Assembly (NCBI RefSeq): GCF_000025665.1
Contig: NC_013926.1
Location: 30,001-62,000 of the forward strand
Direction of reading: 5' to 3'
Source of the DNA: Aciduliprofundum boonei T469
Lineage (GTDB): Archaea > Thermoplasmatota > Thermoplasmata > Thermoplasmatales > Aciduliprofundaceae
Length of the DNA: 32,000 nucleotides
The stretch's first letter is position 1. Each line of letters opens with the position of its first letter. The position numbers and the translations under genes are program-made. Below are positions 6,818-27,846 of the stretch, in pieces. Below the pieces are notes generated by a model. The model made no database searches, was not told the origin of the DNA, and was given only the letters and a program-made list of their open reading frames with translations.

Positions 6818-7083
6818 AATTTTCACCTATGGAAATAAAAGAGGCACAAAAAATAATAGAGGAGGTTTATGGAGAAAAAGATAGGGAAAGAGGTGTATAT
6901 GCGGATTTGGTGTGGCTGGGGGAAGAATTGGGTGAGCTTTTCAAAGCCGTGCGAGAGAATAAAAGTATAGAAGAGGAAGTTGCAGATGTATTTGCATGGC
7001 TTCTCTCAGTAGCCAATGTTCTGGGCATAGATGTGGAAGAAGCATTCAAAATGAAGTATCTCACATCTCAAGGTCCTCCCTAG
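6814..7083 (+). CDS. MazG-like nucleotide pyrophosphohydrolase (single small domain)
   Basis: 89 aa. LGEELGELFKAV....EEEVADVFAWLLSVANVLGIDVEEAF is the EExxE...E..D MazG motif set. The ATGA start overlaps the upstream methyltransferase stop. Confidence 0.7.
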   Translation: MKFSPMEIKEAQKIIEEVYGEKDRERGVYADLVWLGEELGELFKAVRENKSIEEEVADVFAWLLSVANVLGIDVEEAFKMKYLTSQGPP

Positions 7084-7642
7084 TTAAATTCCTTAAATCA
7101 AGGATATCATCCGCAAATGTTGTCACCTGACTAAATTCTACCTCTTCAAGCTCTTTATCTAGCATAAAGATTATTCCTACAAGGCCATAGAGTCGTATCT
7201 CGTTAGTTATCATCCTTAGAAATCTTATGAATGATTGATAAGTGTTGTATGCTAAGAAAGTGCTGATGGATTCAATATAAACAAAATTCCTCTCGCCTTC
7301 CAACACTTTTAATCCATGTCTTATTGCACCCTCAAGTAACATAGCAGAAGGCTCATTAAGATAAATAACATTATTTCTCTCCTCAGGGGTTTTTATTGAA
7401 GCTGTAATGCAATCCACAAAGAAAAGCTTTGAGGGGTCTGCCCCCATCCTCCTTATTCGCTTTTCCACAGATGTATGGGGAATGTTCAAAGCCACATATA
7501 GTCCTTGGGTGTTATCATCCTTTAATAAATGAGCAACTATGGTATATCCTAACAATGCTCTAAGCTCTGCCTTTGTGAGCACCATCACTATTTTAGAGTC
7601 GTCTAACATCTCATCTATTATCTCTTTCAAATTGACGCTCAT
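7061..7642 (-). CDS. KaiC/RecA-like domain protein lacking a Walker A P-loop (inactivated paralog of the upstream ATPase)
   Basis: 193 aa and colinear with the 243-aa neighbour. VMVLTKAELRALLGYTIVAHLL replaces ISLVVGPSGIGKTILSVQWLAEGV, and FVYIESIS replaces RLVLDSLT. The ATGA start overlaps the upstream stop (7639-7642). Confidence 0.6.
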   Translation of the reverse strand: MSVNLKEIIDEMLDDSKIVMVLTKAELRALLGYTIVAHLLKDDNTQGLYVALNIPHTSVEKRIRRMGADPSKLFFVDCITASIKTPEERNNVIYLNEPSAMLLEGAIRHGLKVLEGERNFVYIESISTFLAYNTYQSFIRFLRMITNEIRLYGLVGIIFMLDKELEEVEFSQVTTFADDILDLRNLTREDLEM

Positions 7643-8370
7643 AGGATTATTCCCTCTTCCCTAATGTGGAAAGGTGTCCAATATGTTGGATGGTTAAACC
7701 CATACCTCTTCACTATCTTCAATGCTCTCATATGCATATTCTGATGCTCCATGAAATCCATAAGAATCGTGGCCTCGCTAAAATTTCTCATTTCCCCCAT
7801 CTTTTTTCCATCCTCATCCATTTCTTCAATTAACATAGTTGAAATCTTGTTATCATGGAAGAACCTTATCCAAGTGGCTCCGAGATATCTGAACATTGAA
7901 ATATCACCGACAATTTTCTCAATAGTAGTTAAGCTATCCAGCACTAATCTATCAATGGGCTTTTTCAAATTCAACTGTTCATCAAAGAAATCTGGCATAA
8001 CCTTATGAAAAATCTTCAAAATTTTCTCCTTTGTAAATGGTATCAAATCCTTCGGACTTATGTACATATCATACCAGTGTATTTTATCAACCGCATCCTT
8101 CAGCAATTTCATATCTCCATAGTACGCTATAACAGCCTCGGAGGGTAGAGTAGTTGAGATATAAACACATGTCTCACCATTCCTAACCCCCTCTGCTAGC
8201 CATTGTACTGAGAGTATCGTTTTACCTATTCCAGAAGGACCAACCACTAGCGAGATTCCATTTCTGGGAAAACCACCGCCAAGCGCTTCATCCAATTTTT
8301 TTATGCCAGTAGGCGCTACAGAAACTGTCATAGTTGGGCATTCTTGAATTGTGCATTTAAATTTTTTCAT
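7639..8370 (-). CDS. Single-domain KaiC-like (RecA-superfamily) ATPase
   Basis: 243 aa. It has TGIKKLDEALGGGFPRNGISLVVGPSGIGKT (Walker A), RLVLDSLT (Walker B) and an acidic LIEEMDE segment. Confidence 0.8.
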   Translation of the reverse strand: MKKFKCTIQECPTMTVSVAPTGIKKLDEALGGGFPRNGISLVVGPSGIGKTILSVQWLAEGVRNGETCVYISTTLPSEAVIAYYGDMKLLKDAVDKIHWYDMYISPKDLIPFTKEKILKIFHKVMPDFFDEQLNLKKPIDRLVLDSLTTIEKIVGDISMFRYLGATWIRFFHDNKISTMLIEEMDEDGKKMGEMRNFSEATILMDFMEHQNMHMRALKIVKRYGFNHPTYWTPFHIREEGIIL

Positions 8371-16143: not shown

Positions 16144-16148
16144 AATCT

Positions 16149-16172
16149 AAATATTAATTCGCATTTGTGTAA
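16149..16172 (+). promoter_or_regulatory. Promoter/operator copy 1: AAATATTAATTCGCATTTGTGTAA (TATA-like part plus conserved downstream box)
   Basis: This 24-mer ends 3 nt before ATG 16176 and is identical to 17343-17366. The TATA-like AAATATTAA lies about 25 nt upstream of the ATG, implying a leaderless mRNA. Confidence 0.6.
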
Positions 16173-16175
16173 AAA

Positions 16176-17321
16176 ATGACAAAAAATGAAGTGTTTGAGT
16201 ATGGAGAGCGTATTGCTAGAAATGTAACAACAATAACTTTAATACTGGCCATATTAAAATTCATAGTTGCATATTACACTCACTCGGTATCCATACTCGC
16301 AGATTCTTACCACAGCTTCGCAGATTTAATCCCAATCTCCGCCGCATGGATAGGTTTAAGAATAGCCCAGAGACCGAGAAGCGAGAAATTTCCATACGGG
16401 TACTATAAAGCCGAAAACCTGGCTGCGTTTATCGCCAGCATTTTCATTTTCTTACTCGCTTATGAGATAATCACAAAAAGTATATCTACCTTCTCAAGTA
16501 AAAACACAGTAGAGCATTCAATTGCGGGTTTAATCCTAACAGCAATTTTTGTTCTCATTTCATATATCTTATACATATACCAACTAAAAGCTGCAAAGAT
16601 TTCCAACTCTCAAGCCCTTATGGCAAACGCAAGAGAGACAAAAATGGATATATTTTCATCTATCGCCGTATTCATAGGATTTTTCGGCTCCAGTATGGGT
16701 TATCCTTGGATTGGTGGCATTGTGGGATTTCTAATAGCAATTCTGGTTATCCATGCAGGGTATCAGAGTATCCGTGATTCTGTACTATCACTCATGGATG
16801 CGGGATTACCTAAAGAAGATATAGAAAAAATAAGAAAAATTATTCTCTCAACGCCAAGGGTCAGGGAGGTAAAGAAAATTTACACAAGACGCTCTGGACC
16901 ATTCATCATGGTAGAAGTTGAAATTTCTGTACCTGAAAAGCTAAATGTTAAACAGGCGCATGAGATTGCTTCTGAAGTTGAAAAGAGAATAATGCAGATA
17001 AAGCAGGTTGACCATGCATTTGTTCATGTTGAGCCGCCCACGAAGAGTAGAAAGATTATAGCAATACCAGTAAATAAAGACCATTCCCCCAGCCCCACCT
17101 TCGGCTCTGCTCCTTATTTTGAGATATACCAAGTGGAAAAAGATGAGAAAAAATTGATAAAAACAGTAAAAAATCCAGGTGCAAATCTGGAAAAGAAGAG
17201 AGGAGTTAAGGCCGCACTTTTCTTAATAGAGCAAGGTGTGGATGAGGTCCATACAAAAAATATTGGAGAAGATAGCAAAAAGATACTGGAAGATGCCGGG
17301 ATAAAGATAAAATTTAAATAA
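16176..17321 (+). CDS. Cation diffusion facilitator (CDF) metal transporter with an additional C-terminal NifX/NifB-type (dinitrogenase FeMo-cofactor-binding family) domain
   Basis: 381 aa. CDF motifs are SILADSYHSFADL, FPYGYYKAENL and a cytoplasmic ZT-dimer-like VREVKKIYTRRSGPFIMVEVEI...HAFVHVEP. Then residues ~292-381 (nt ~17049-17318), KIIAIPVNKD..SPTFGSAPYFEIYQV....LIKTVKNPG.....GVKAALFLIEQGVDEVHTKNIGEDSKKILEDAGIKI, match the NifX-like fold pattern. Confidence 0.8.
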   Translation: MTKNEVFEYGERIARNVTTITLILAILKFIVAYYTHSVSILADSYHSFADLIPISAAWIGLRIAQRPRSEKFPYGYYKAENLAAFIASIFIFLLAYEIITKSISTFSSKNTVEHSIAGLILTAIFVLISYILYIYQLKAAKISNSQALMANARETKMDIFSSIAVFIGFFGSSMGYPWIGGIVGFLIAILVIHAGYQSIRDSVLSLMDAGLPKEDIEKIRKIILSTPRVREVKKIYTRRSGPFIMVEVEISVPEKLNVKQAHEIASEVEKRIMQIKQVDHAFVHVEPPTKSRKIIAIPVNKDHSPSPTFGSAPYFEIYQVEKDEKKLIKTVKNPGANLEKKRGVKAALFLIEQGVDEVHTKNIGEDSKKILEDAGIKIKFK

Positions 17322-17335
17322 TCGCTTTTGTGCAA
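17320..17335 (+). promoter_or_regulatory. Degenerate extra copy of the downstream box (AATCGCTTTTGTGCAA)
   Basis: It resembles AATTCGCATTTGTGTAA and lies 30 nt upstream of that box in the second promoter, overlapping the CDF stop codon. Confidence 0.3.
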
Positions 17336-17342
17336 AATCTTT

Positions 17343-17366
17343 AAATATTAATTCGCATTTGTGTAA
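17343..17366 (+). promoter_or_regulatory. Promoter/operator copy 2: AAATATTAATTCGCATTTGTGTAA
   Basis: This is an exact 24/24 repeat of 16149-16172. It is followed by GGTGA (17371-17375) and ATG 17381. Confidence 0.6.
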
Positions 17367-17380
17367 TATAGGTGATTGGA

Positions 17381-17605
17381 ATGCCTTATGGAGATTGCAC
17401 AGGACCGGATGGTAGAGGACCGAGAAGGAGAAGATTCGCAATTTACCAGAACTATCCACAGGACTACTATCCTCGGAGAGGTACATTTACAGGGTTCTTC
17501 CGAAGGCTATTTAGTCCCATGAATTATGGGCAGAGAGGATACGGCCAAGGAATGGGCTATGGAAGAGGCAGAGGGGGTAAAAGAGGACGCAGAGGTGGAT
17601 GGTAA
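17381..17605 (+). CDS. Small Arg/Gly-rich protein with a DUF5320-like N-terminal motif (74 aa)
   Basis: MPYGDCTGPDGRGPRRRR...GYGQGMGYGRGRGGKRGRRGGW has 15 R and 18 G of 74 residues by my count. The N-terminus resembles my recollection of the DUF5320 start (MPxGDxTGPxGxGP). ATG 17381 is preferred over GTG 17372. Confidence 0.6.
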   Translation: MPYGDCTGPDGRGPRRRRFAIYQNYPQDYYPRRGTFTGFFRRLFSPMNYGQRGYGQGMGYGRGRGGKRGRRGGW

Positions 17606-17818
17606 ATGCCTCGCTACGGATATGGTAGAGGTTACAGGGGCTCAGCGTTGAGCTTATACAGCCTGGTAGATATAGCAATAATTGCAGGGATCATATACCT
17701 GCTCATCTCTCTGTTTATGGTAGCAGCAGGATATGTAATAGCATTGATTGTGCTAATCTTGCTTAGGGAATTCCTAAGGGGAAGGTTTAATTGGAGAAGA
17801 ATGTATGTATGGAGGTGA
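17606..17818 (+). CDS. Small membrane protein with an R/G/Y-rich N-terminus (70 aa)
   Basis: MPRYGYGRGYRG is followed by about 40 hydrophobic residues (LYSLVDIAIIAGIIYLLISLFMVAAGYVIALIVLILL) and a basic tail. The ATG directly abuts the upstream TAA (17603-17605), and AGAGGTGG lies upstream. Confidence 0.55.
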   Translation: MPRYGYGRGYRGSALSLYSLVDIAIIAGIIYLLISLFMVAAGYVIALIVLILLREFLRGRFNWRRMYVWR

Positions 17819-17824
17819 TGAGAA

Positions 17825-18196
17825 ATGTATAGATATTACGGATATGGATACTATGGCCCTGGCTTTGGCTGGGGTCGTGGAAGAGGAAGAGGCTGGGGAA
17901 GAGGATTTGGCCGTGGGTTTGGAATGGGTAGAGGATACGGTGCCACACTCGGTTATTGTCCTTGGACCGGGTTACCCAGGGGATGGAGATGGAACTATCC
18001 CTATGGATATGGTACAAGCGTATCCCCATATTATCCAAGATACTACCCACAATACTATGGGTTAAATCCCTATGCCCAATATTACCAGCCATATCCCCAA
18101 GCTAATGAGAGAGAGTTATTAGAAAATGAAGCCAGGAATTTGGAAGAGAGATTAAGGGACATAGAAAGAAGAATAAGGGAGATAAAGGGTGAATAA
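17825..18196 (+). CDS. Gly/Tyr/Arg/Pro/Trp low-complexity protein with a C-terminal coiled coil (DUF5320-like, 123 aa)
   Basis: MYRYYGYGYYGPGFGWGRGRGRGWGRGFGRGFGMGRGYG...PYYPRYYPQYYGLNPYAQYYQPYPQ is followed by ERELLENEARNLEERLRDIERRIREIKGE. GGAGGTGA (17811-17818) lies 6 nt upstream of the ATG. Confidence 0.65.
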   Translation: MYRYYGYGYYGPGFGWGRGRGRGWGRGFGRGFGMGRGYGATLGYCPWTGLPRGWRWNYPYGYGTSVSPYYPRYYPQYYGLNPYAQYYQPYPQANERELLENEARNLEERLRDIERRIREIKGE

Positions 18197-18197
18197 A

Positions 18198-18671
18198 ATG
18201 CGTGTAGCCATAACTGCCGATGCACCAGATGAAAACTCTCCCATCTCCCCGATTTTTGGAAGATGCGCATACTATGCAATATACGACACTGCCACCGATA
18301 AACTAGAGTTCGTGCCCAATGCCTCTGCAATGTACGCAAGGGGGGCTGGAGTGCAAGCAGCACAGCAAATTGCAAATTTAGGAGTTCAAACAGTGATAAC
18401 TTCTGGAATCGCTGGACCAAACGCATCAATGGTCCTCGCACAGGCGGGTATCCAGGTAATCAACTCATTTCAAGGAACAATTAGAGATGCAATTGAGGCC
18501 GTTAAATCGGGAAGAATTTATTCAGAGCCACCGAGGGCTTTTCCACCACCACAGCCGCCATATCCGCCAATAAGCAAGGAGGAAGAACTCAGGATGCTTG
18601 AGGAAGAAAAAGAATACATTGAAAAGAGATTAGAAGAGATAAAAAAGAAACTTGAAGAGCTAAAAGAGTGA
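18198..18671 (+). CDS. NifX/NifB-type (dinitrogenase FeMo-cofactor family) domain protein with a Pro-rich linker and C-terminal coiled coil
   Basis: MRVAITAD....ISPIFGRCAYYAIYD......FVPN.......GAGVQAAQQIANLGVQTVITSGIAGPNASMVLAQAGIQV is the NifX-like pattern. It is followed by PPRAFPPPQPPYPP and EEELRMLEEEKEYIEKRLEEIKKKLEELKE. ATG 18198 lies 1 nt after the upstream stop; the track's GTG 18189 is an alternative start. Confidence 0.75.
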   Translation: MRVAITADAPDENSPISPIFGRCAYYAIYDTATDKLEFVPNASAMYARGAGVQAAQQIANLGVQTVITSGIAGPNASMVLAQAGIQVINSFQGTIRDAIEAVKSGRIYSEPPRAFPPPQPPYPPISKEEELRMLEEEKEYIEKRLEEIKKKLEELKE

Positions 18672-18692
18672 TTTTTCCTTATTTTCTTTTTT
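18672..18692 (+). terminator. Oligo-T tract (TTTTTCCTTATTTTCTTTTTT) after the operon
   Basis: T-rich run immediately after stop 18669-18671, of the archaeal oligo-T terminator type. Confidence 0.45.
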
Positions 18693-18711
18693 AATAATCA
18701 CTGCACAAAAC

Positions 18712-18718
18712 TTATATA
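18712..18718 (+). promoter_or_regulatory. TATA box (TTATATA) for the KaiC-like gene
   Basis: Centred about 25 nt upstream of ATG 18740, which would make the mRNA leaderless. Confidence 0.45.
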
Positions 18719-18739
18719 GGCAAGAAAGATGATTTTACG

Positions 18740-19447
18740 ATGCGAATTAGAACTGGCATACCTGGATTTGATGAGTTAGTTCAAGGTGGTTTAGTTGCCC
18801 AGAGGGTTTATATTATAGCGGGTCCTCCAGGCTCTGGAAAAACCACATTTGGCATACAATTTCTTCTTCAGGGTGCGAAGGAGGGGGAGCGTGGACTCTT
18901 TGTATCTCTAACTGAGGACCCAAAAACGATAATTGAGGATATATCCACATTCAATCTGAGCTTGAAGAGATATGCGTTATCGGGCCACATACTATTTGTG
19001 GATATGGGACCATTGAGCATTCAAAATTTGAATGGTGTAAAATCTCCCGAGAGTATTAAGAGTGCATATGCTCAAGAGGTCTTTAGAAGAATATACGCTA
19101 TTGTGAAAGCAAAGGGCATAAAGAGATTGGTTATTGATTCTGTTCTAACCCTAAAATATGGAGAGAAAAGCTTAGAGGATGAAAGCAAAGAGATCGCAAG
19201 ATTCTTCAGAAGCTTGAAAGATTTGAAAATCACAGTACTAATTCTTTCAGAAATGACTGATTTATCAAACTACACTCCCGAGCATTATATGGCCCATGGC
19301 CTTATCTTTCTCCATAATTTTCTAAACGGGCACACTATGACAAGGGCAATACAAATAATAAAGATGAGAGGCACAGCTCACGACTGCGATATGCACAAGA
19401 TGGAGATAACCCAAAATGGAATTAGGGTTTATTCCACGAAGGTGTGA
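18740..19447 (+). CDS. Single-domain KaiC-like (RecA-superfamily) ATPase
   Basis: 235 aa. It has TGIPGFDELVQGGLVAQRVYIIAGPPGSGKTTFGIQFL (Walker A), RLVIDSVL (Walker B), and the IIKMRGTAHD tail typical of KaiC/RadA-like proteins. Confidence 0.82.
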   Translation: MRIRTGIPGFDELVQGGLVAQRVYIIAGPPGSGKTTFGIQFLLQGAKEGERGLFVSLTEDPKTIIEDISTFNLSLKRYALSGHILFVDMGPLSIQNLNGVKSPESIKSAYAQEVFRRIYAIVKAKGIKRLVIDSVLTLKYGEKSLEDESKEIARFFRSLKDLKITVLILSEMTDLSNYTPEHYMAHGLIFLHNFLNGHTMTRAIQIIKMRGTAHDCDMHKMEITQNGIRVYSTKV

Positions 19448-19450
19448 GCT

Positions 19451-20113
19451 ATGAAATGCCCAATTTGTGGCTCAACAAATGTTACGAAACTTAAAACTGG
19501 AAGCTATAGATGCAATGATTGCGGTTTTGTGTTTTACCCTACTCGAGAGGTAATAATAGATATGCGAGACCTTCTAACTGGAGATGAATTAACAGAGGAG
19601 GAGATAAATGAATTAGGAGAAAAGATAAAGGAGCAAACTGAGAATGTGAGTGAGAAAATTTTTGGAAAGAGTGCCAAGAATGTTTTCAGAGCATTAAGCT
19701 CTCTGGATGAGATTTTAGCTCAATATAATGAAGATGATAGGGTGTTTGGCATATTTGCCGATTTTTCAGGAAGTGTTAAAGGCACTGTTATGATAATGGT
19801 TCAAGAGAACGAAATTGACATAATAAAGAAAATTTACAGAAAAAAAGAGGTTATAGAAGCACTAAAACAACTGGGAAAAGAAACGGCAGAAGGATTTAAA
19901 GAGATATTTCAAGATGATCTATTTCTTGAGGGAGTGGATATTGCCTACGATACCATACCCTCCATTATAAATTATCTAATTTCAGAGATCGCTGGGGAAA
20001 GAAATATGATTTTAAATGTAAAAATGATCGTGGATAAAGCACCAAAGGGAGAAATAATATTTGTTCCTCAAAAAGATAGCATAAAATATTTAAAGAGTGT
20101 GCTTGGGAACTGA
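19451..20113 (+). CDS. Zinc-ribbon protein with an uncharacterised C-terminal alpha/beta domain (partner of the KaiC-like ATPase)
   Basis: 220 aa. The N-terminus is MKCPICGSTNV...YRCNDCGFVF (CxxC...CxxC). The rest matches no family I can name with confidence; a weak CheC/CheX-like impression is unverified. The start is 3 nt after the KaiC-like stop. Confidence 0.55.
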   Translation: MKCPICGSTNVTKLKTGSYRCNDCGFVFYPTREVIIDMRDLLTGDELTEEEINELGEKIKEQTENVSEKIFGKSAKNVFRALSSLDEILAQYNEDDRVFGIFADFSGSVKGTVMIMVQENEIDIIKKIYRKKEVIEALKQLGKETAEGFKEIFQDDLFLEGVDIAYDTIPSIINYLISEIAGERNMILNVKMIVDKAPKGEIIFVPQKDSIKYLKSVLGN

Positions 20114-20634: not shown

Positions 20635-22287
20635 TCAGTATATTTGCACATATCTATTTAACATTACTGGCGGAATGCTTATCACCTTGTAGATGGGGAT
20701 TCCAAGCCCCGGTATTATCTTCATTGTTAACTTTGTTTGAGGTGTCAGTGTTAATCCCACATCCCTGGCATTTATGTACATGACAATAATCGCACCTTCT
20801 TCAAGTATATAACTCTGCGTGAACTCTCCGGATGGGTCATTTATCACACTTACACCATAATGGGTAGCATCTGCTGCTTCCACCCCAAAACCACTGGAAT
20901 TGAGTTTTAAAGATGCTTCAACTTTGCCATCCGTAAGCTCTACAATCACAGTATTGAAATCAACGGGTTTAGAACCTGGACCTAAAGAAAGTTTTATTTG
21001 CAACACCTGAATTGAATTTTGGGGTACTATAATCTGACCATAATGGGACGCATTATCCACTGGAACCACAAGATAATAATATGTCTGGTAGGGCATATAT
21101 CTATAATCATTGAAACTCGTGGTATTGACTATGGCATAGGGCTTAGTGTTGAAAACTTCTGTAGTGGAAACATCAAGATAATTTGTAGAGCGATAAATGT
21201 AATATGCTTTAATCCCGCTCTGGTTATCCTTAGCCGCACTCCATTCAAGATGTATATAATATTGCGAGGTTTCGGCCCTTAAACCGCTTATGGAAGATGG
21301 CTTTGTGGTATCCACACGGGTAACATTCACACCTGATGTTTTTGTTATAAATCCTACATTTCCTGCCTTATCAACTACGAGTATAGCATAGTACCAAGTG
21401 CCCTTTGCAGGTGGATAATCCATATAAGCTGTAACATTAGGGCCTACAGTAGCAACTAAAGTTGCGTTATTGATAATTTTCTTGGTATAATTTACATCAG
21501 ATTGGGTTATCTCATTATTTGATCTATATATCTTCTGGTATGCAATTCCACTTCCACCAGTATCACTGGCAGTCCAAGAGAGCATAACACCATATCCTGC
21601 AGGGGTTATGGAATTAATACTCCCTGTTGGAGCAGATGTATCTGGCGTACCTGTACCTGTATAAACAGTTTGATTCACAGCAGAATAGAGGACATAATTC
21701 CCGACTCTATCGTAGCCGATTATTGCATATCCATAATACTTGCTAGCATTCACACCGTAATCCACATATACCCTATCATTTCCAAATCCAGAGGTGAAAG
21801 TGGCAACCAAATTTCCTACAGCTTTTATGTAATTCACATCCTTAACTATATACTTTACAGCGGTAAAACTATCACCGCTAACTCTATAAAGCTCCTCTTT
21901 CCACATGCCGCTTTCCCAATCTACAGCTGAGTTCCAAACTATTTTTACAGATAGAGGATTTGTGCTATTTACACTCACATTTAATATAACTCCTCCCCTA
22001 GGAGGCTGAGTGTCACTATGAATGGGCGCCTTAACACTCACAACGGAGGGGTCTTTTCCATCTATATCCCTATCCCCAAGGATATTTAGAATCCGCAGTG
22101 AGCTTGTAATCTGCGAGGTCACATCTGATGCCACCTTTTCTCCTTGCTCTCGCAAAGTCACACCCACATATATGATTAGGGAGGATGCAATAGCGGCCAC
22201 TATGATTATCGCTATGAAAAGTATCAAGGTTGCAATGCCTATATCACCCTCTTCTTTTCTGTATATCTTTTTCATATTTTCAACCAC
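20635..22287 (-). CDS. Archaellin (FlaB/ArlB)-family protein with three FN3-like domains inserted
   Basis: 550 aa. A class III signal-peptide-like N-terminus (KEEG-DIGIATLILFIAIIIVAAIASSLII) is followed by LREQGEKVASDVTSQITSSLRILNILG. The archaellin-type C-terminus is LSLGPGSKPVDFNTVIVELTDG...MKIIPGLGIPIYKVISIP. Three repeats of about 100 aa lie between them. An alternative start is ATG 22275 (MKKIYRK...). Confidence 0.7.
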   Translation of the reverse strand: MVENMKKIYRKEEGDIGIATLILFIAIIIVAAIASSLIIYVGVTLREQGEKVASDVTSQITSSLRILNILGDRDIDGKDPSVVSVKAPIHSDTQPPRGGVILNVSVNSTNPLSVKIVWNSAVDWESGMWKEELYRVSGDSFTAVKYIVKDVNYIKAVGNLVATFTSGFGNDRVYVDYGVNASKYYGYAIIGYDRVGNYVLYSAVNQTVYTGTGTPDTSAPTGSINSITPAGYGVMLSWTASDTGGSGIAYQKIYRSNNEITQSDVNYTKKIINNATLVATVGPNVTAYMDYPPAKGTWYYAILVVDKAGNVGFITKTSGVNVTRVDTTKPSSISGLRAETSQYYIHLEWSAAKDNQSGIKAYYIYRSTNYLDVSTTEVFNTKPYAIVNTTSFNDYRYMPYQTYYYLVVPVDNASHYGQIIVPQNSIQVLQIKLSLGPGSKPVDFNTVIVELTDGKVEASLKLNSSGFGVEAADATHYGVSVINDPSGEFTQSYILEEGAIIVMYINARDVGLTLTPQTKLTMKIIPGLGIPIYKVISIPPVMLNRYVQIY

Positions 22288-26703: not shown

Positions 26704-27846
26704 TTATCCTACTAGAAGATATACTCCGCCATAGACCGAGGAAATGTTCTGGATCTTTTCCTTTAGTATTTTGCGGGTCTCCTCCTTTAACCAAGGCTCT
26801 GAGAGGTCTAAAAGTATCACCGGCTTGTATACCTGCTCCAGCAGAGATGTTATTATAAACCCTATCATCTCCATATGCTCCTTATTTTCTGGATTTAACC
26901 TATTCTTGCCCCCTTCTTTGCTTATCTCGTAAATAGATGTATTTTTCAGGCCATGCTTTTTCTTGAAATCCTCGGCATTCTCAGATATGAAAGCAACACC
27001 CGTATTACCAGATTTCACCAGCAACATGAATTTATGATACGCCTCATCTTTTTTCATTTCGTATATTCCCATATCTGGCATCTCTTCACTCTCAACAGCT
27101 TCTTCTTGAACAGGTGCTACCAAAAATAGCCTGTATCTATGCACAGTGTATATGACGAACAAGCCAAATATTGAAAATGCAAGTGTATTTAGGGGATACA
27201 TATTTATATTCATCATAGTTGGGACAAAGGATGTAAAAACGACCATAAAGAACATTATTAGGAATCCAATGAGAGTTATAATGATTTGATTTTTTATTAT
27301 ATACATATCCACTCCCTTTAGTTTCATTACGAGGATACCTATCATTATCAAAGCAGCTATAAAATCCCATGTTGCAAAGAACTTATGCAATACTGACGAT
27401 TCTAATCCCCAAATAATTATACCAAGAGCATTGTAAGGGCTTACACCTCTGATTACTATATTCCCAAGTAAACTATTGAATGGTATGAGTGCTATTCCAA
27501 CAAAAGAGAGAATATAAACTGCATATAGAATGTACTTGCGAGTTGATGCTTTCATTTTTATTCTATACGGATAATCTATCGCAAAATGTATCAATCCCGC
27601 AGGAGTTATAAATATTCCAACACAGAGAGTTAAGGCCCCCAAATAAGCAAGAGTTTCATCAGCGGGAGGGGGTCCAGCAATTCTCTCAAGTAGTTCTCCA
27701 AAGCTCCATATTAAAACTCCCAAAAACATCACAAAAGCGGCAAGGTTACCTGGTTTTTTAATATTCGCTTTAAGTATAAGATACACTAGGACTGCGCTTA
27801 TCACAGTGGCCACTAAAGATATAGAAGAGGCATATGTGAACCACAT
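26704..27846 (-). CDS. Membrane protein with a 7TM N-terminal domain and a C-terminal DUF835 (P-loop-less KaiC/RecA-like) domain
   Basis: 380 aa. About 7 hydrophobic helices span residues 1-245. The cytoplasmic tail is GVAFISENAEDFKKKHGL....IYEIS......L.P.....M...I..LLEQVYKPVILLDLSEPWL. The PVILLDLS segment aligns with FVYIESIS of the 7061-7642 protein. Confidence 0.65.
   Translation of the reverse strand: MWFTYASSISLVATVISAVLVYLILKANIKKPGNLAAFVMFLGVLIWSFGELLERIAGPPPADETLAYLGALTLCVGIFITPAGLIHFAIDYPYRIKMKASTRKYILYAVYILSFVGIALIPFNSLLGNIVIRGVSPYNALGIIIWGLESSVLHKFFATWDFIAALIMIGILVMKLKGVDMYIIKNQIIITLIGFLIMFFMVVFTSFVPTMMNINMYPLNTLAFSIFGLFVIYTVHRYRLFLVAPVQEEAVESEEMPDMGIYEMKKDEAYHKFMLLVKSGNTGVAFISENAEDFKKKHGLKNTSIYEISKEGGKNRLNPENKEHMEMIGFIITSLLEQVYKPVILLDLSEPWLKEETRKILKEKIQNISSVYGGVYLLVG

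Follow-up and report, generated by a model that had tools for sequence, protein, structure and literature searches.

The 32,000-nucleotide stretch of the archaeon Aciduliprofundum boonei T469 analysed here (contig NC_013926.1, positions 30,001 to 62,000 of the forward strand; hereafter the window, with positions counted from its first letter) contains a cluster of five plus-strand genes at 16176-18671, in which a metal transporter belonging to the family of cation diffusion facilitators (CDF) adjoins genes for small proteins rich in arginine, glycine and tyrosine (R/G/Y) and for a NifX-like protein. The first open reading frame (ORF; 16176-17321, 381 aa) encodes the transporter, which bears an extra NifX-like domain (CDF-NifX), and constitutes unit 1. 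The last four are tightly packed, constitute unit 2 and encode p74 (17381-17605; 74 aa, or 77 aa from an alternative start at 17372), p70 (17606-17818; 70 aa), p123 (17825-18196; 123 aa) and a second NifX-like protein with a coiled-coil end (NifX-cc; 18198-18671; 157 aa, or 160 aa from an alternative start at 18189). All five were delimited as ORFs, with Pfam matches for CDF-NifX, p123 and NifX-cc, and homologues in five relatives set the starts of p74 and NifX-cc at ATG 17381 (MPYGDC...) and ATG 18198 (MRVAIT...). The TAA of p74 abuts the ATG of p70 (17605/17606), six nucleotides lie between the TGA of p70 and the ATG of p123 (17818/17825), and one nucleotide lies between the TAA of p123 and the ATG of NifX-cc (18196/18198); these three starts are preceded, in order, by the ribosome-binding-site-like sequences GGTGGA, GGAGGTGA and GGGTGA. 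An earlier note on this DNA, made from the letters alone, had described these ORFs, junctions and ribosome-binding-site-like sequences, and all of them were found where it placed them. Oligo-T tracts terminate archaeal transcription, and the T-rich tract TTTTTCCTTATTTTCTTTTTT directly downstream (18672-18700, plus strand) is probably the terminator of unit 2. Aciduliprofundum lives as a thermoacidophile at vents and reduces S0 and Fe(III). The window CDF protein is 91% identical to its homologue in the metagenome-assembled genome (MAG) Aciduliprofundum sp. S145_39, and NifX-cc is 84% identical to AciM339_0050 of the cultured Aciduliprofundum sp. MAR08-339. The earlier note had also found no nitrogenase or nif genes in the window, and Pfam annotation bears this out, showing only housekeeping genes among the other ORFs of 100 aa or more.

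The product of the first gene is a CDF transporter, matching Cation_efflux (PF01545; 1.6e-44, 152.5 bits against a cut-off of 26.6), ZT_dimer (PF16916; 2.6e-22, 79 bits, cut-off 26.7) and the NCBIfam superfamily model TIGR01297 (235.7 bits, cut-off 82.35). It consists of six transmembrane (TM) helices, a cytoplasmic ZT_dimer domain and the extra C-terminal NifX-like domain (residues ~292-380), which matches Nitro_FeMo-Co (PF02579; 2.9e-14, 53.5 bits, cut-off 26.3). Its scores with the NCBIfam equivalog models, given with their cut-offs in bits, are 161/350 for MamB, 152/500 for MntE, 150/420 for FieF and 135/350 for MamM. The ZitB model gives 68 bits, with MamB, MntE and FieF far higher, so that the protein resembles the Fe/Mn-branch CDFs while belonging to none of the FieF, MamB, MamM and MntE equivalogs. 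In alignments with FieF/YiiP the predicted transport site, H46-x3-D50 on TM2 and E154-x3-D158 on TM5, falls on D45/D49 and H153/D157 of YiiP; a Glu stands for His/Asp at one of these positions, giving a tetrahedral site in variant form. Site B of YiiP is absent, its place being taken by the family-wide motif FPYGYYKAE. The AlphaFold2 model has a mean pLDDT of 83 (83-91 in the NifX-like part), and its best Foldseek match is YiiP, which the CDF core, like FieF, also resembles by sequence. We found no published analysis of a CDF-NifX transporter; in the literature search on NifX together with CDF the one relevant item was an in-silico study of ANME-2a.

NifX-cc comprises a domain of the NifX/ORP type (residues 1-108; PF02579, 2.3e-19, 69.9 bits, cut-off 26.3), a proline-rich linker SEPPRAFPPPQPPYPPI with 9 Pro in 17 residues, and a C-terminal coiled-coil helix. 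In the AlphaFold2 model (overall pLDDT 87.9) the linker falls to ~50, as a disordered segment would, and is followed by a single helix at 127-156 with ~90. The closest protein of solved structure is the orange protein (ORP) of Desulfovibrio gigas (2WFB), both by sequence (3.5e-15) and by Foldseek (TM-score 0.82, root-mean-square deviation 1.6 A, 37% identity); TM1290 comes next by both measures, followed by MTH1175 by sequence and by TM1816 by structure. The Foldseek matches of the domain comprise 2WFB, 1RDU, 1O13, 2YX6, 1EO1 and NafY (1P90). The NifX equivalog model TIGR02663 gives the window protein only 13.2 bits against a cut-off of 112, and with no nif context at hand the NifX-like proteins of the cluster are not NifX proper. 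The tail of NifX-cc matches DUF5320 (PF17253; 6.8e-6, 27.6 bits, cut-off 27) over profile positions 47-99, and its last 32 residues form an acidic/basic, glycine-free coiled coil, in which, as in the p123 helix, four canonical heptads can be read from the sequence. Tail and coiled coil interchange modularly among the homologues of NifX-cc: P0178 and P0179, 49% identical in the domain, have NifX, Pro and a (GGWGRG)n tail in place of the coiled coil, and P0180 and P0181 have NifX, R/G, Pro and coiled coil, with the junction SKEEEL..L as in the window protein. Fusions of NifX and DUF5320 of ~197 aa recur among the best 120 of 4347 profile-search matches. We infer that the coiled coil of NifX-cc is the remnant of a fusion of this kind and would allow p123, as a detached tail, to rejoin the NifX domain.

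The three remaining products of unit 2 are the R/G/Y proteins. The first, p74, is soluble and strongly cationic (15 R, 18 G and 14 aromatic among 74 residues; net charge +13). Its N-terminus, MPYGDCTGPDGRGPRRR, resembles the N-terminal module of DUF5320 and is conserved among the five loci of the DHVE2 clade that we compared (the window, L006, L007, L008/L001 and L010). By score p74 is not a member of DUF5320 (12.1 bits, below the 27-bit gathering score and over the N-terminal part only), though the N-terminal motif of the family, MPxGDxTGPxGxGP, is present in it. At the other end p74 reads ...GRRGGW, similar to the endings of the cis tails borne by R/G-tailed NifX proteins in other archaea, and orthologues of p74 were found at the five DHVE2 loci and in MAR08-339. 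The second, p70, has a cationic R/G/Y N-terminus MPRYGYGRGYRGS, a hydrophobic segment of ~40 residues (~13-53) and a cationic R/W C-terminus, and is predicted from hydropathy and charge to be membrane-anchored; among the surveyed loci its homologues are confined to the DHVE2 clade, with a further one in MAR08-339. The third, p123, is a DUF5320 protein (PF17253; 2.2e-8, 35.6 bits, cut-off 27, profile positions 8-98). Its residues 1-92 are of R/G/Y/W/P low complexity (10 R, 23 G, 29 aromatic, 10 P, 1 C and no acidic residue) and include the conserved core GYGATLGYCPWTGLPRGWRW, which across the five DHVE2 loci reads GYGATLGYCPWTG(L/M)PRGWRW; residues 93-123 form the predicted helix of four heptads. 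The C-terminal coiled coil of DUF5320 is thus matched both by p123 and by the NifX-cc tail, and the assignments to Cation_efflux, PF02579 and DUF5320 which the earlier note had suggested all hold above the gathering score. A sequence search of the PDB with p123 gave no significant match, and our search for functional literature on DUF5320 returned incidental mentions only. We also noticed that the C-termini of p74 and p70 (17588-17602 and 17801-17815) end in ...R(R/G)(G)RW, with Trp last or within the last three residues, and that the same ending occurs on the NifX tails of six surveyed loci from elsewhere; endings in ...RRW or ...GRW are conserved among the five DHVE2 loci. This Trp ending, common to detached and cis tails, could be a docking or capping motif.

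At all five DHVE2 loci the same four ORFs occur in the same order and frames, and their changes in length are multiples of three. Ratios of nonsynonymous to synonymous substitution (dN/dS; Nei-Gojobori) were taken over the unsaturated pairs, the window against L006 and L008 against L010. The former pair gives 0.26 for p74, 0.05 for p70, 0.10 for p123 and 0.05 for NifX-cc, and the latter values close to these, with ranges of 0.20-0.26 for p74, 0.05-0.14 for p70 and 0.09-0.10 for p123; CDF-NifX gives 0.11-0.15 (0.11 for the window against L006). The earlier note had staked its proposal on purifying selection in these frames, and with dN/dS of 0.05-0.26 the four small ORFs can be taken as genuine coding genes under such selection. 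Two ORFs overlie the R/G/Y genes in other frames, one of 101 aa on the minus strand (17787-18092) and an acid-rich one of 86 aa on the plus strand (17805-18065); the latter is truncated in relatives, and we therefore regard these ORFs as shadows of a coding frame rich in GGN and CGN codons.

The two units are preceded by the same sequence. The exact 25-mer TAAATATTAATTCGCATTTGTGTAA occurs at 16148-16172 and at 17342-17366 on the plus strand (2 matches against 0.00 expected from 100 shuffles), each copy consisting of a TATA-like box, TAAATATTAAT, followed by a 14-nt box B, TCGCATTTGTGTAA (16159-16172 and 17353-17366). A repeat of 24 nt had been reported here by the earlier note; a pattern search with TCGCNYTTGWGYAA (3 matches against 0.17 expected) added a third, related 14-nt box that the note lacks, box A (TCGCTTTTGTGCAA; 17322-17335, plus strand), which begins right after the CDF stop codon and lies just 5' of the TATA box of unit 2. 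In unit 1, box B ends 3 nt 5' of the ATG and the centre of the TATA box lies ~26 nt upstream of the start, a distance that appears to fit standard archaeal promoter geometry; the CDF-NifX mRNA is therefore probably leaderless. Unit 2 has the Shine-Dalgarno-like sequence GGTGAT (17370-17375) after box B, and then ATG 17381. An alignment of ten promoters, two from each of the five DHVE2 genomes, shows a near-invariant TATA box, TTTAAATATTA, followed by box B, TCGCATTTG(T/A)GTAA, and box A (TCGCnyTTGTGCAA) stands 5' of the TATA box in all five unit-2 promoters and in the unit-1 promoter of L007. The 14-nt box thus holds the same three positions in each of the five genomes, and no exact match to it was found elsewhere in the other fetched loci (~1 Mb). 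Synonymous sites are saturated between the distant genomes, so that this conservation reflects constraint; the element looks functional, and chance can be set aside as its origin. A site between TATA box and start is, in archaea, the classic place for repressors that block recruitment of the polymerase. An RNA element was considered and rejected, with no Rfam match at E <=1 and with neither leader folding better than shuffled sequence (z = -0.04 and +0.77); as both tests were negative, a DNA operator is the better reading. A scan for sigma70-type promoters and intrinsic terminators gave matches at or below the level of shuffles, from models that are uninformative for an archaeon. The shared element suggests that units 1 and 2 are co-regulated.

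The complete genome of MAR08-339 has the same neighbourhood, with genes for deoxyhypusine synthase, TyrRS and SpoU, the four-gene operon (AciM339_0047-0050, a numbering inferred from AciM339_0050), a KaiC-like ATPase and a zinc-ribbon protein. There is no CDF-NifX gene at this locus, nor was an orthologue on the 1.437-Mb contig among the top CDF matches listed, and the pump must therefore be regarded as facultative. A single promoter copy lies between SpoU and the p74 homologue (L086, 4100-4170), and it is a hybrid, its upstream half being like the unit-1 promoter of L006 and its downstream half like that of unit 2. In the window the CDF-NifX gene lies between the two promoter copies, which form direct repeats at a distance of 1194 bp, and a single hybrid copy matches what would be expected from recombination between them, suggesting repeat-mediated loss or gain of the pump. 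A further locus, L009, has a 67%-identical CDF-NifX with neither the operon nor the 14-nt box. The coupled two-unit module of the earlier note is thus upheld in its shared promoter, conserved in five DHVE2 genomes, but the coupling is a facultative one.

The same note had held that no function was established for neighbourhoods of NifX-like and DUF5320 proteins, a statement that overlooks two studied relatives. The first is IssA (SipA, PF2025) of Pyrococcus furiosus, which consists of a 109-aa IPR003731 domain, a proline-rich stretch with 9 Pro in 23 residues, and a 70-aa C-terminal region with 7 cationic and 14 aromatic residues, 15 Gly, 11 Pro and 1 Cys (PMC5524996). This tail is proposed to wrap anionic thioferrate, (FeS2-)n, electrostatically, yielding Fe-S particles of 20-300 nm (PMC5524996, Vaccaro 2017), and tails of its kind have been screened for by pI >=9, a Cys count below 5 and a Gly share of 20% or more over the last 40 residues (PMC5524996). 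In Palaeococcus, the genes most strongly induced by S0 include those for IssA/SipA homologues, for NifX-like neighbours and for CobQ-type Fe-S ATPases (PMC6981617), and in FeS2-grown Methanococcus voltae IssA homologues are up and thioferrate-like electron paramagnetic resonance signals are seen (PMC8516115). No Thermococcales protein was among the matches listed in our homology searches aimed at IssA. The second relative is the ORP complex of Desulfovibrio, which includes the NifX-like Orp8, the MinD-ferredoxin proteins Orp3/4 and MrpORP (PMC6345978).

At least 184 species-representative genomes, almost all of them labelled archaeal, encode the CDF-NifX fusion; the hosts include DHVE2, Methanobacterium, Methanosarcinales/ANME-2, Bathyarchaeia, Thermoplasmata, Aenigmarchaeota and other DPANN groups. 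We surveyed 82 non-redundant archaeal loci, counting as neighbours the genes on the same strand within 5 kb. A stand-alone NifX gene is present at 63 of the 82, an Orp3/4-like gene for a MinD-type ATPase with a ferredoxin insert (MinD-Fer4) at 51, often joined by an Mrp/ParA gene, and a small ORF of the R/G/aromatic or DUF5320-coiled-coil type at 41; 13 loci have none of these. The CDF gene lies no more than 60 nt from such a gene at 52/82 loci, and the density of R/G/aromatic ORFs is 11-fold higher within 2 kb of it. At seven loci the NifX gene itself bears a cis R/G/aromatic tail, and in other phyla such tails beside CDF-NifX have a Trp within the last residues (...GGRW, ...RRWQQ), as in p74 and p70. 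From this linkage it follows that the module joins gene types of the ORP complex, IssA-like proteins and a dedicated transporter. In DHVE2 this module is reduced, with no MinD-Fer4 or Mrp gene in the window or at the DHVE2 loci, and has the clade-specific, predicted membrane-anchored p70 added. The earlier note had called for a survey of this kind: the co-occurrence of CDF-NifX with NifX-like and R/G/aromatic/DUF5320 genes extends across archaea.

Several further observations were made at these loci. Mini-proteins of 55-90 aa that combine an R/G stretch with a CxCPxCG...CPKCG zinc ribbon are encoded at eight of them, in other archaeal phyla, and three further loci encode longer proteins that join DUF134, a predicted helix-turn-helix (HTH) domain, to the N-terminal motif of DUF5320, to an R/G stretch and to that zinc ribbon; such fusions may be regulators or sensors of the module in those lineages. 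A lead on DUF134 in an iron study of Bacteroides proved false, the family there being DUF1349. In Methanococcoides and relatives CDF-NifX directly follows a 640-aa protein, in which domains of the F420-dependent sulfite reductase Fsr (NIR_SIR and FrhB) were seen at locus L005, the assignment at the other Methanosarcinales/ANME loci being drawn from equal size and position; NifX, MinD-Fer4 and CGGC-domain genes adjoin CDF-NifX at the Methanococcoides-type loci. The Fsr neighbour appears to link the CDF-NifX module to sulfite/sulfide metabolism.

Based on these observations we propose that the cluster is a lineage-specific, split version of an IssA-type system for Fe-S storage and detoxification, joined by a facultative metal exporter and co-regulated as a response to iron and sulfide overload, a proposal to which we would give an even chance of being right. 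At high intracellular iron and sulfide a DNA-binding protein would act at the 14-nt boxes, and both units would be transcribed. The NifX/ORP-type domain of NifX-cc would nucleate or bind anionic Fe-S species (thioferrate or another Fe-S polyanion), which the Arg/Gly/aromatic segments of p74, of the p70 termini and of p123 residues 1-92 would wrap and neutralise. Association of p123 with NifX-cc would take place through their homologous four-heptad coiled coils, and p70 would tether the Fe-S material to the membrane. CDF-NifX would export surplus divalent metal, most likely Fe2+ or Mn2+, with its cytoplasmic NifX-like domain sensing the Fe-S load or docking on the particle. The suggestion of the earlier note that the R/G/Y proteins are polycationic binders of polyanions agrees with the published thioferrate model of the IssA tail (PMC5524996), and the rise of IssA homologues in S0-exposed Palaeococcus (PMC6981617) and in FeS2-grown Methanococcus voltae (PMC8516115) is consistent with the proposal. 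A bolder version, which we consider unlikely, has the R/G/Y proteins and an inorganic Fe-S polyanion form a protein-organised, membrane-tethered Fe-S body, a mineral or condensate store devoid of a lipid envelope. In this version NifX would nucleate the body, the coiled coils hold it together, p70 anchor it and CDF-NifX dock through its own NifX domain, and DUF5320 would be the general 'tail' family for such bodies in anaerobic archaea and bacteria.

Several points weigh against this proposal. The pump is missing from the MAR08-339 operon locus, and at L009 it occurs without the operon and the box. The metal cannot be identified from a transport site of H-D-E-D, and CDFs export from the cytoplasm, which suits detoxification but not storage. 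Elsewhere the R/G modules are fused to the DUF134 HTH and to zinc ribbons, and could bind nucleic acid. The closest solved structure, ORP, binds a Mo-Cu-S cluster and not thioferrate. Moreover, Pyrococcus forms thioferrate-like iron without IssA, the particles then being more crystalline (PMC8219758), and the storage role of IssA is therefore not settled.

The closeness of NifX-cc to ORP 2WFB, by sequence as by structure, also allows a different reading, in which the NifX-like proteins carry a discrete heterometallic or Fe-S cluster like Orp8 and MrpORP. Their partners would then be MinD-ferredoxin ATPases whose genes lie elsewhere, and the process served might for example be cluster delivery or cell division, with the R/G/Y proteins as accessory adaptors and the CDF handling the partner metal. 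The Orp3/4-like MinD-Fer4 genes at 51 of the 82 CDF-NifX loci, and the composition of the Desulfovibrio complex from the same protein types (PMC6345978), speak in its favour; yet neither MinD-Fer4 nor Mrp genes accompany the window or DHVE2 modules, and the polycationic Gly/aromatic proteins, which the IssA model explains, are left unexplained. We consider this assembly unlikely as an account of the cluster; as no biological role has been established for the ORP complex, it overlaps with the split IssA-type system and does not exclude it.

The hybrid promoter of MAR08-339, lying exactly where the CDF gene would be expected, and the free-standing CDF gene of L009 could also mean that the 25-nt identity is mainly a structural scar of insertion or deletion of the CDF gene between promoter copies, the pump being a generic metal-resistance determinant. 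Such an origin would hardly account for the retention of both copies in five genomes whose CDF proteins are 67-91% identical and whose distant pairs are saturated at synonymous sites. The CDF-NifX gene is, furthermore, operonic with NifX, MinD-Fer4 or R/G genes at 52 of the 82 loci, in other archaeal phyla, and the pump itself bears a NifX-like domain, so that we think a mere scar quite improbable.

Composition alone would place the R/G/Y mini-proteins, with their RGG and Tyr-rich low complexity, among RGG-type nucleic-acid-binding or condensate proteins acting in regulation or RNA handling, their siting next to metal genes then reflecting regulation and not mineral binding; the fusion of the same N-terminal module and R/G stretch to DUF134 and zinc ribbons in other archaea accords with this. 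Against it, NifX-type domains of many lineages carry a tail of this type as a direct fusion, and such a tail is the proposed thioferrate binder of IssA (PMC5524996). Since p70 is predicted to be membrane-anchored, and the gene linkage is to transporters and Fe-S ATPases and not to RNA-processing genes, we regard such a role as highly doubtful.

The module is also found in DHVE2, DPANN groups, Bathyarchaeia and Thermoplasmata MAGs, lineages most of which, to our knowledge, lack MCR and F430, and this wide distribution outside methanogens is a strong argument against a shuttle for Ni/F430 or another cofactor, with the CDF in Ni uptake and the NifX-family protein as F430 carrier, which we find scarcely credible given that CDF proteins are exporters. 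It derives from an ANME-2a module of a CDF, two 4Fe-4S proteins, a NifX-family protein and a P-loop NTPase that was tied to MCR in silico, without experimental support (PMC12622379).

Some other genes of the window deserve mention. In DHVE2 the operon is always followed by genes for a KaiC-like ATPase of a single domain (18740-19447) and for a 220-aa protein that bears a zinc ribbon at its N-terminus (19451-20113), the arrangement (18690-20113 in the window) being present also in L007, L008, L010 and L086. Their promoter region is conserved as TTTTAATAATCACT(G/A)CACAAAACTTA(T/A)ATA and holds TTTTGTG, the inverted core of the 14-nt box. The pair was set aside as part of the system, its synteny being limited to DHVE2 and unlinked to CDF-NifX elsewhere. 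The sole obvious transcription factor of the window, a 345-aa protein (851-1888) with two winged-helix domains (HTH_24/TrmB and MarR) and a weak N-terminal match to Fe_dep_repress, lies 15 kb from the cluster, and no link between the two was found. A second KaiC-like ATPase (7639-8370) adjoins an unannotated ORF of 193 aa, the two spanning 7061-8370 on the minus strand, and a 550-aa protein (20635-22287, minus strand) has an archaellin-type domain at its N-terminus only, so that the window holds two KaiC-like genes near one archaellin-like gene. A 380-aa membrane protein (26704-27846, minus strand) combines a HisKA_7TM N-terminal region with a C-terminal DUF835 and has no kinase domain.

Storage and detoxification of iron and sulfide in strict anaerobes are poorly understood, and the literature that we searched leans mainly on IssA, whose necessity is debated. 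The locus points to a modular IssA principle, in which a nucleator of the NifX type is combined with a polycationic Gly/aromatic wrap, a wrap that can be a separate DUF5320-family protein or be membrane-anchored. In the literature that we searched we found no description of three features, namely the division of the tail among DUF5320-type proteins, a tail protein with a predicted membrane anchor, and a CDF-NifX under the same operator. If the proposal is confirmed, it would provide a first function for DUF5320 and for the CDF-NifX fusion, and connect the literatures on IssA and ORP; the cultured relative MAR08-339, the natural contrast between presence and absence of the pump, and the sharply defined 14-nt operator offer handles for such work.

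Set beside known systems, the cluster combines familiar parts in a different arrangement. CDF-NifX shares with FieF/YiiP, MntE and MamB/MamM the six TM helices, the ZT_dimer domain, the YiiP-like fold and a four-residue transport site on TM2 and TM5; it differs from the Fe/Mn-branch CDFs in its additional C-terminal NifX-like domain, and from YiiP in a site A of H-D-E-D instead of D-D-H-D and in the loss of site B to FPYGYYKAE. With NifX, NafY and the C-terminal domain of NifB, which bind anionic Fe-S-based cofactors, the NifX-like domains have the fold and the Pfam family PF02579 in common, but the window branch lies apart from these, close to ORP, MTH1175 and TM1290. The DHVE2 clade has the parts of DUF5320 divided among different genes, with the family's C-terminal helix moved onto the NifX protein.

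The likeness to IssA lies in a NifX-type domain (of 108 aa here) followed directly by a proline-rich linker (9 Pro in 17 residues in NifX-cc), in the lack of a nif context, in a cationic, acid-free, Gly/aromatic-rich segment with a single Cys, here on p123, and in an anaerobic, S0-reducing vent archaeon as host. As indirect pointers to a possible place in the IssA or IssX clade, P0178 and P0179, with which NifX-cc shares 49% identity, are IssA-like, and MTH1175, the template on which IssA was modelled, is among its sequence matches. Unlike IssA, NifX-cc has a coiled coil in place of the cis cationic Gly/aromatic tail, and tail-like segments occur on three separate window proteins, of which one is soluble, one is predicted to be membrane-anchored and one has a coiled coil that matches that of NifX-cc. 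Among the aromatic residues of these proteins Tyr predominates, whereas Trp is named among the key residues of the IssA tail (PMC5524996), and the window module adds the CDF-NifX transporter. The ORP complex is, like the present one, an anaerobe-specific module, and among solved structures its ORP (2WFB) comes closest to the NifX domain. Most other archaeal CDF-NifX genes sit with Orp3/4-like MinD-ferredoxin and Mrp-like ATPases, but co-encoded Orp3/Orp4 and Mrp-NifX are lacking in the window and at the DHVE2 loci, and the description of the ORP complex includes neither a CDF nor R/G proteins of the DUF5320 type (PMC6345978). Finally, the bacterial ORP operons are controlled by sigma54 and OrpR, whereas the window locus has an archaeal TATA box together with the 14-nt box.

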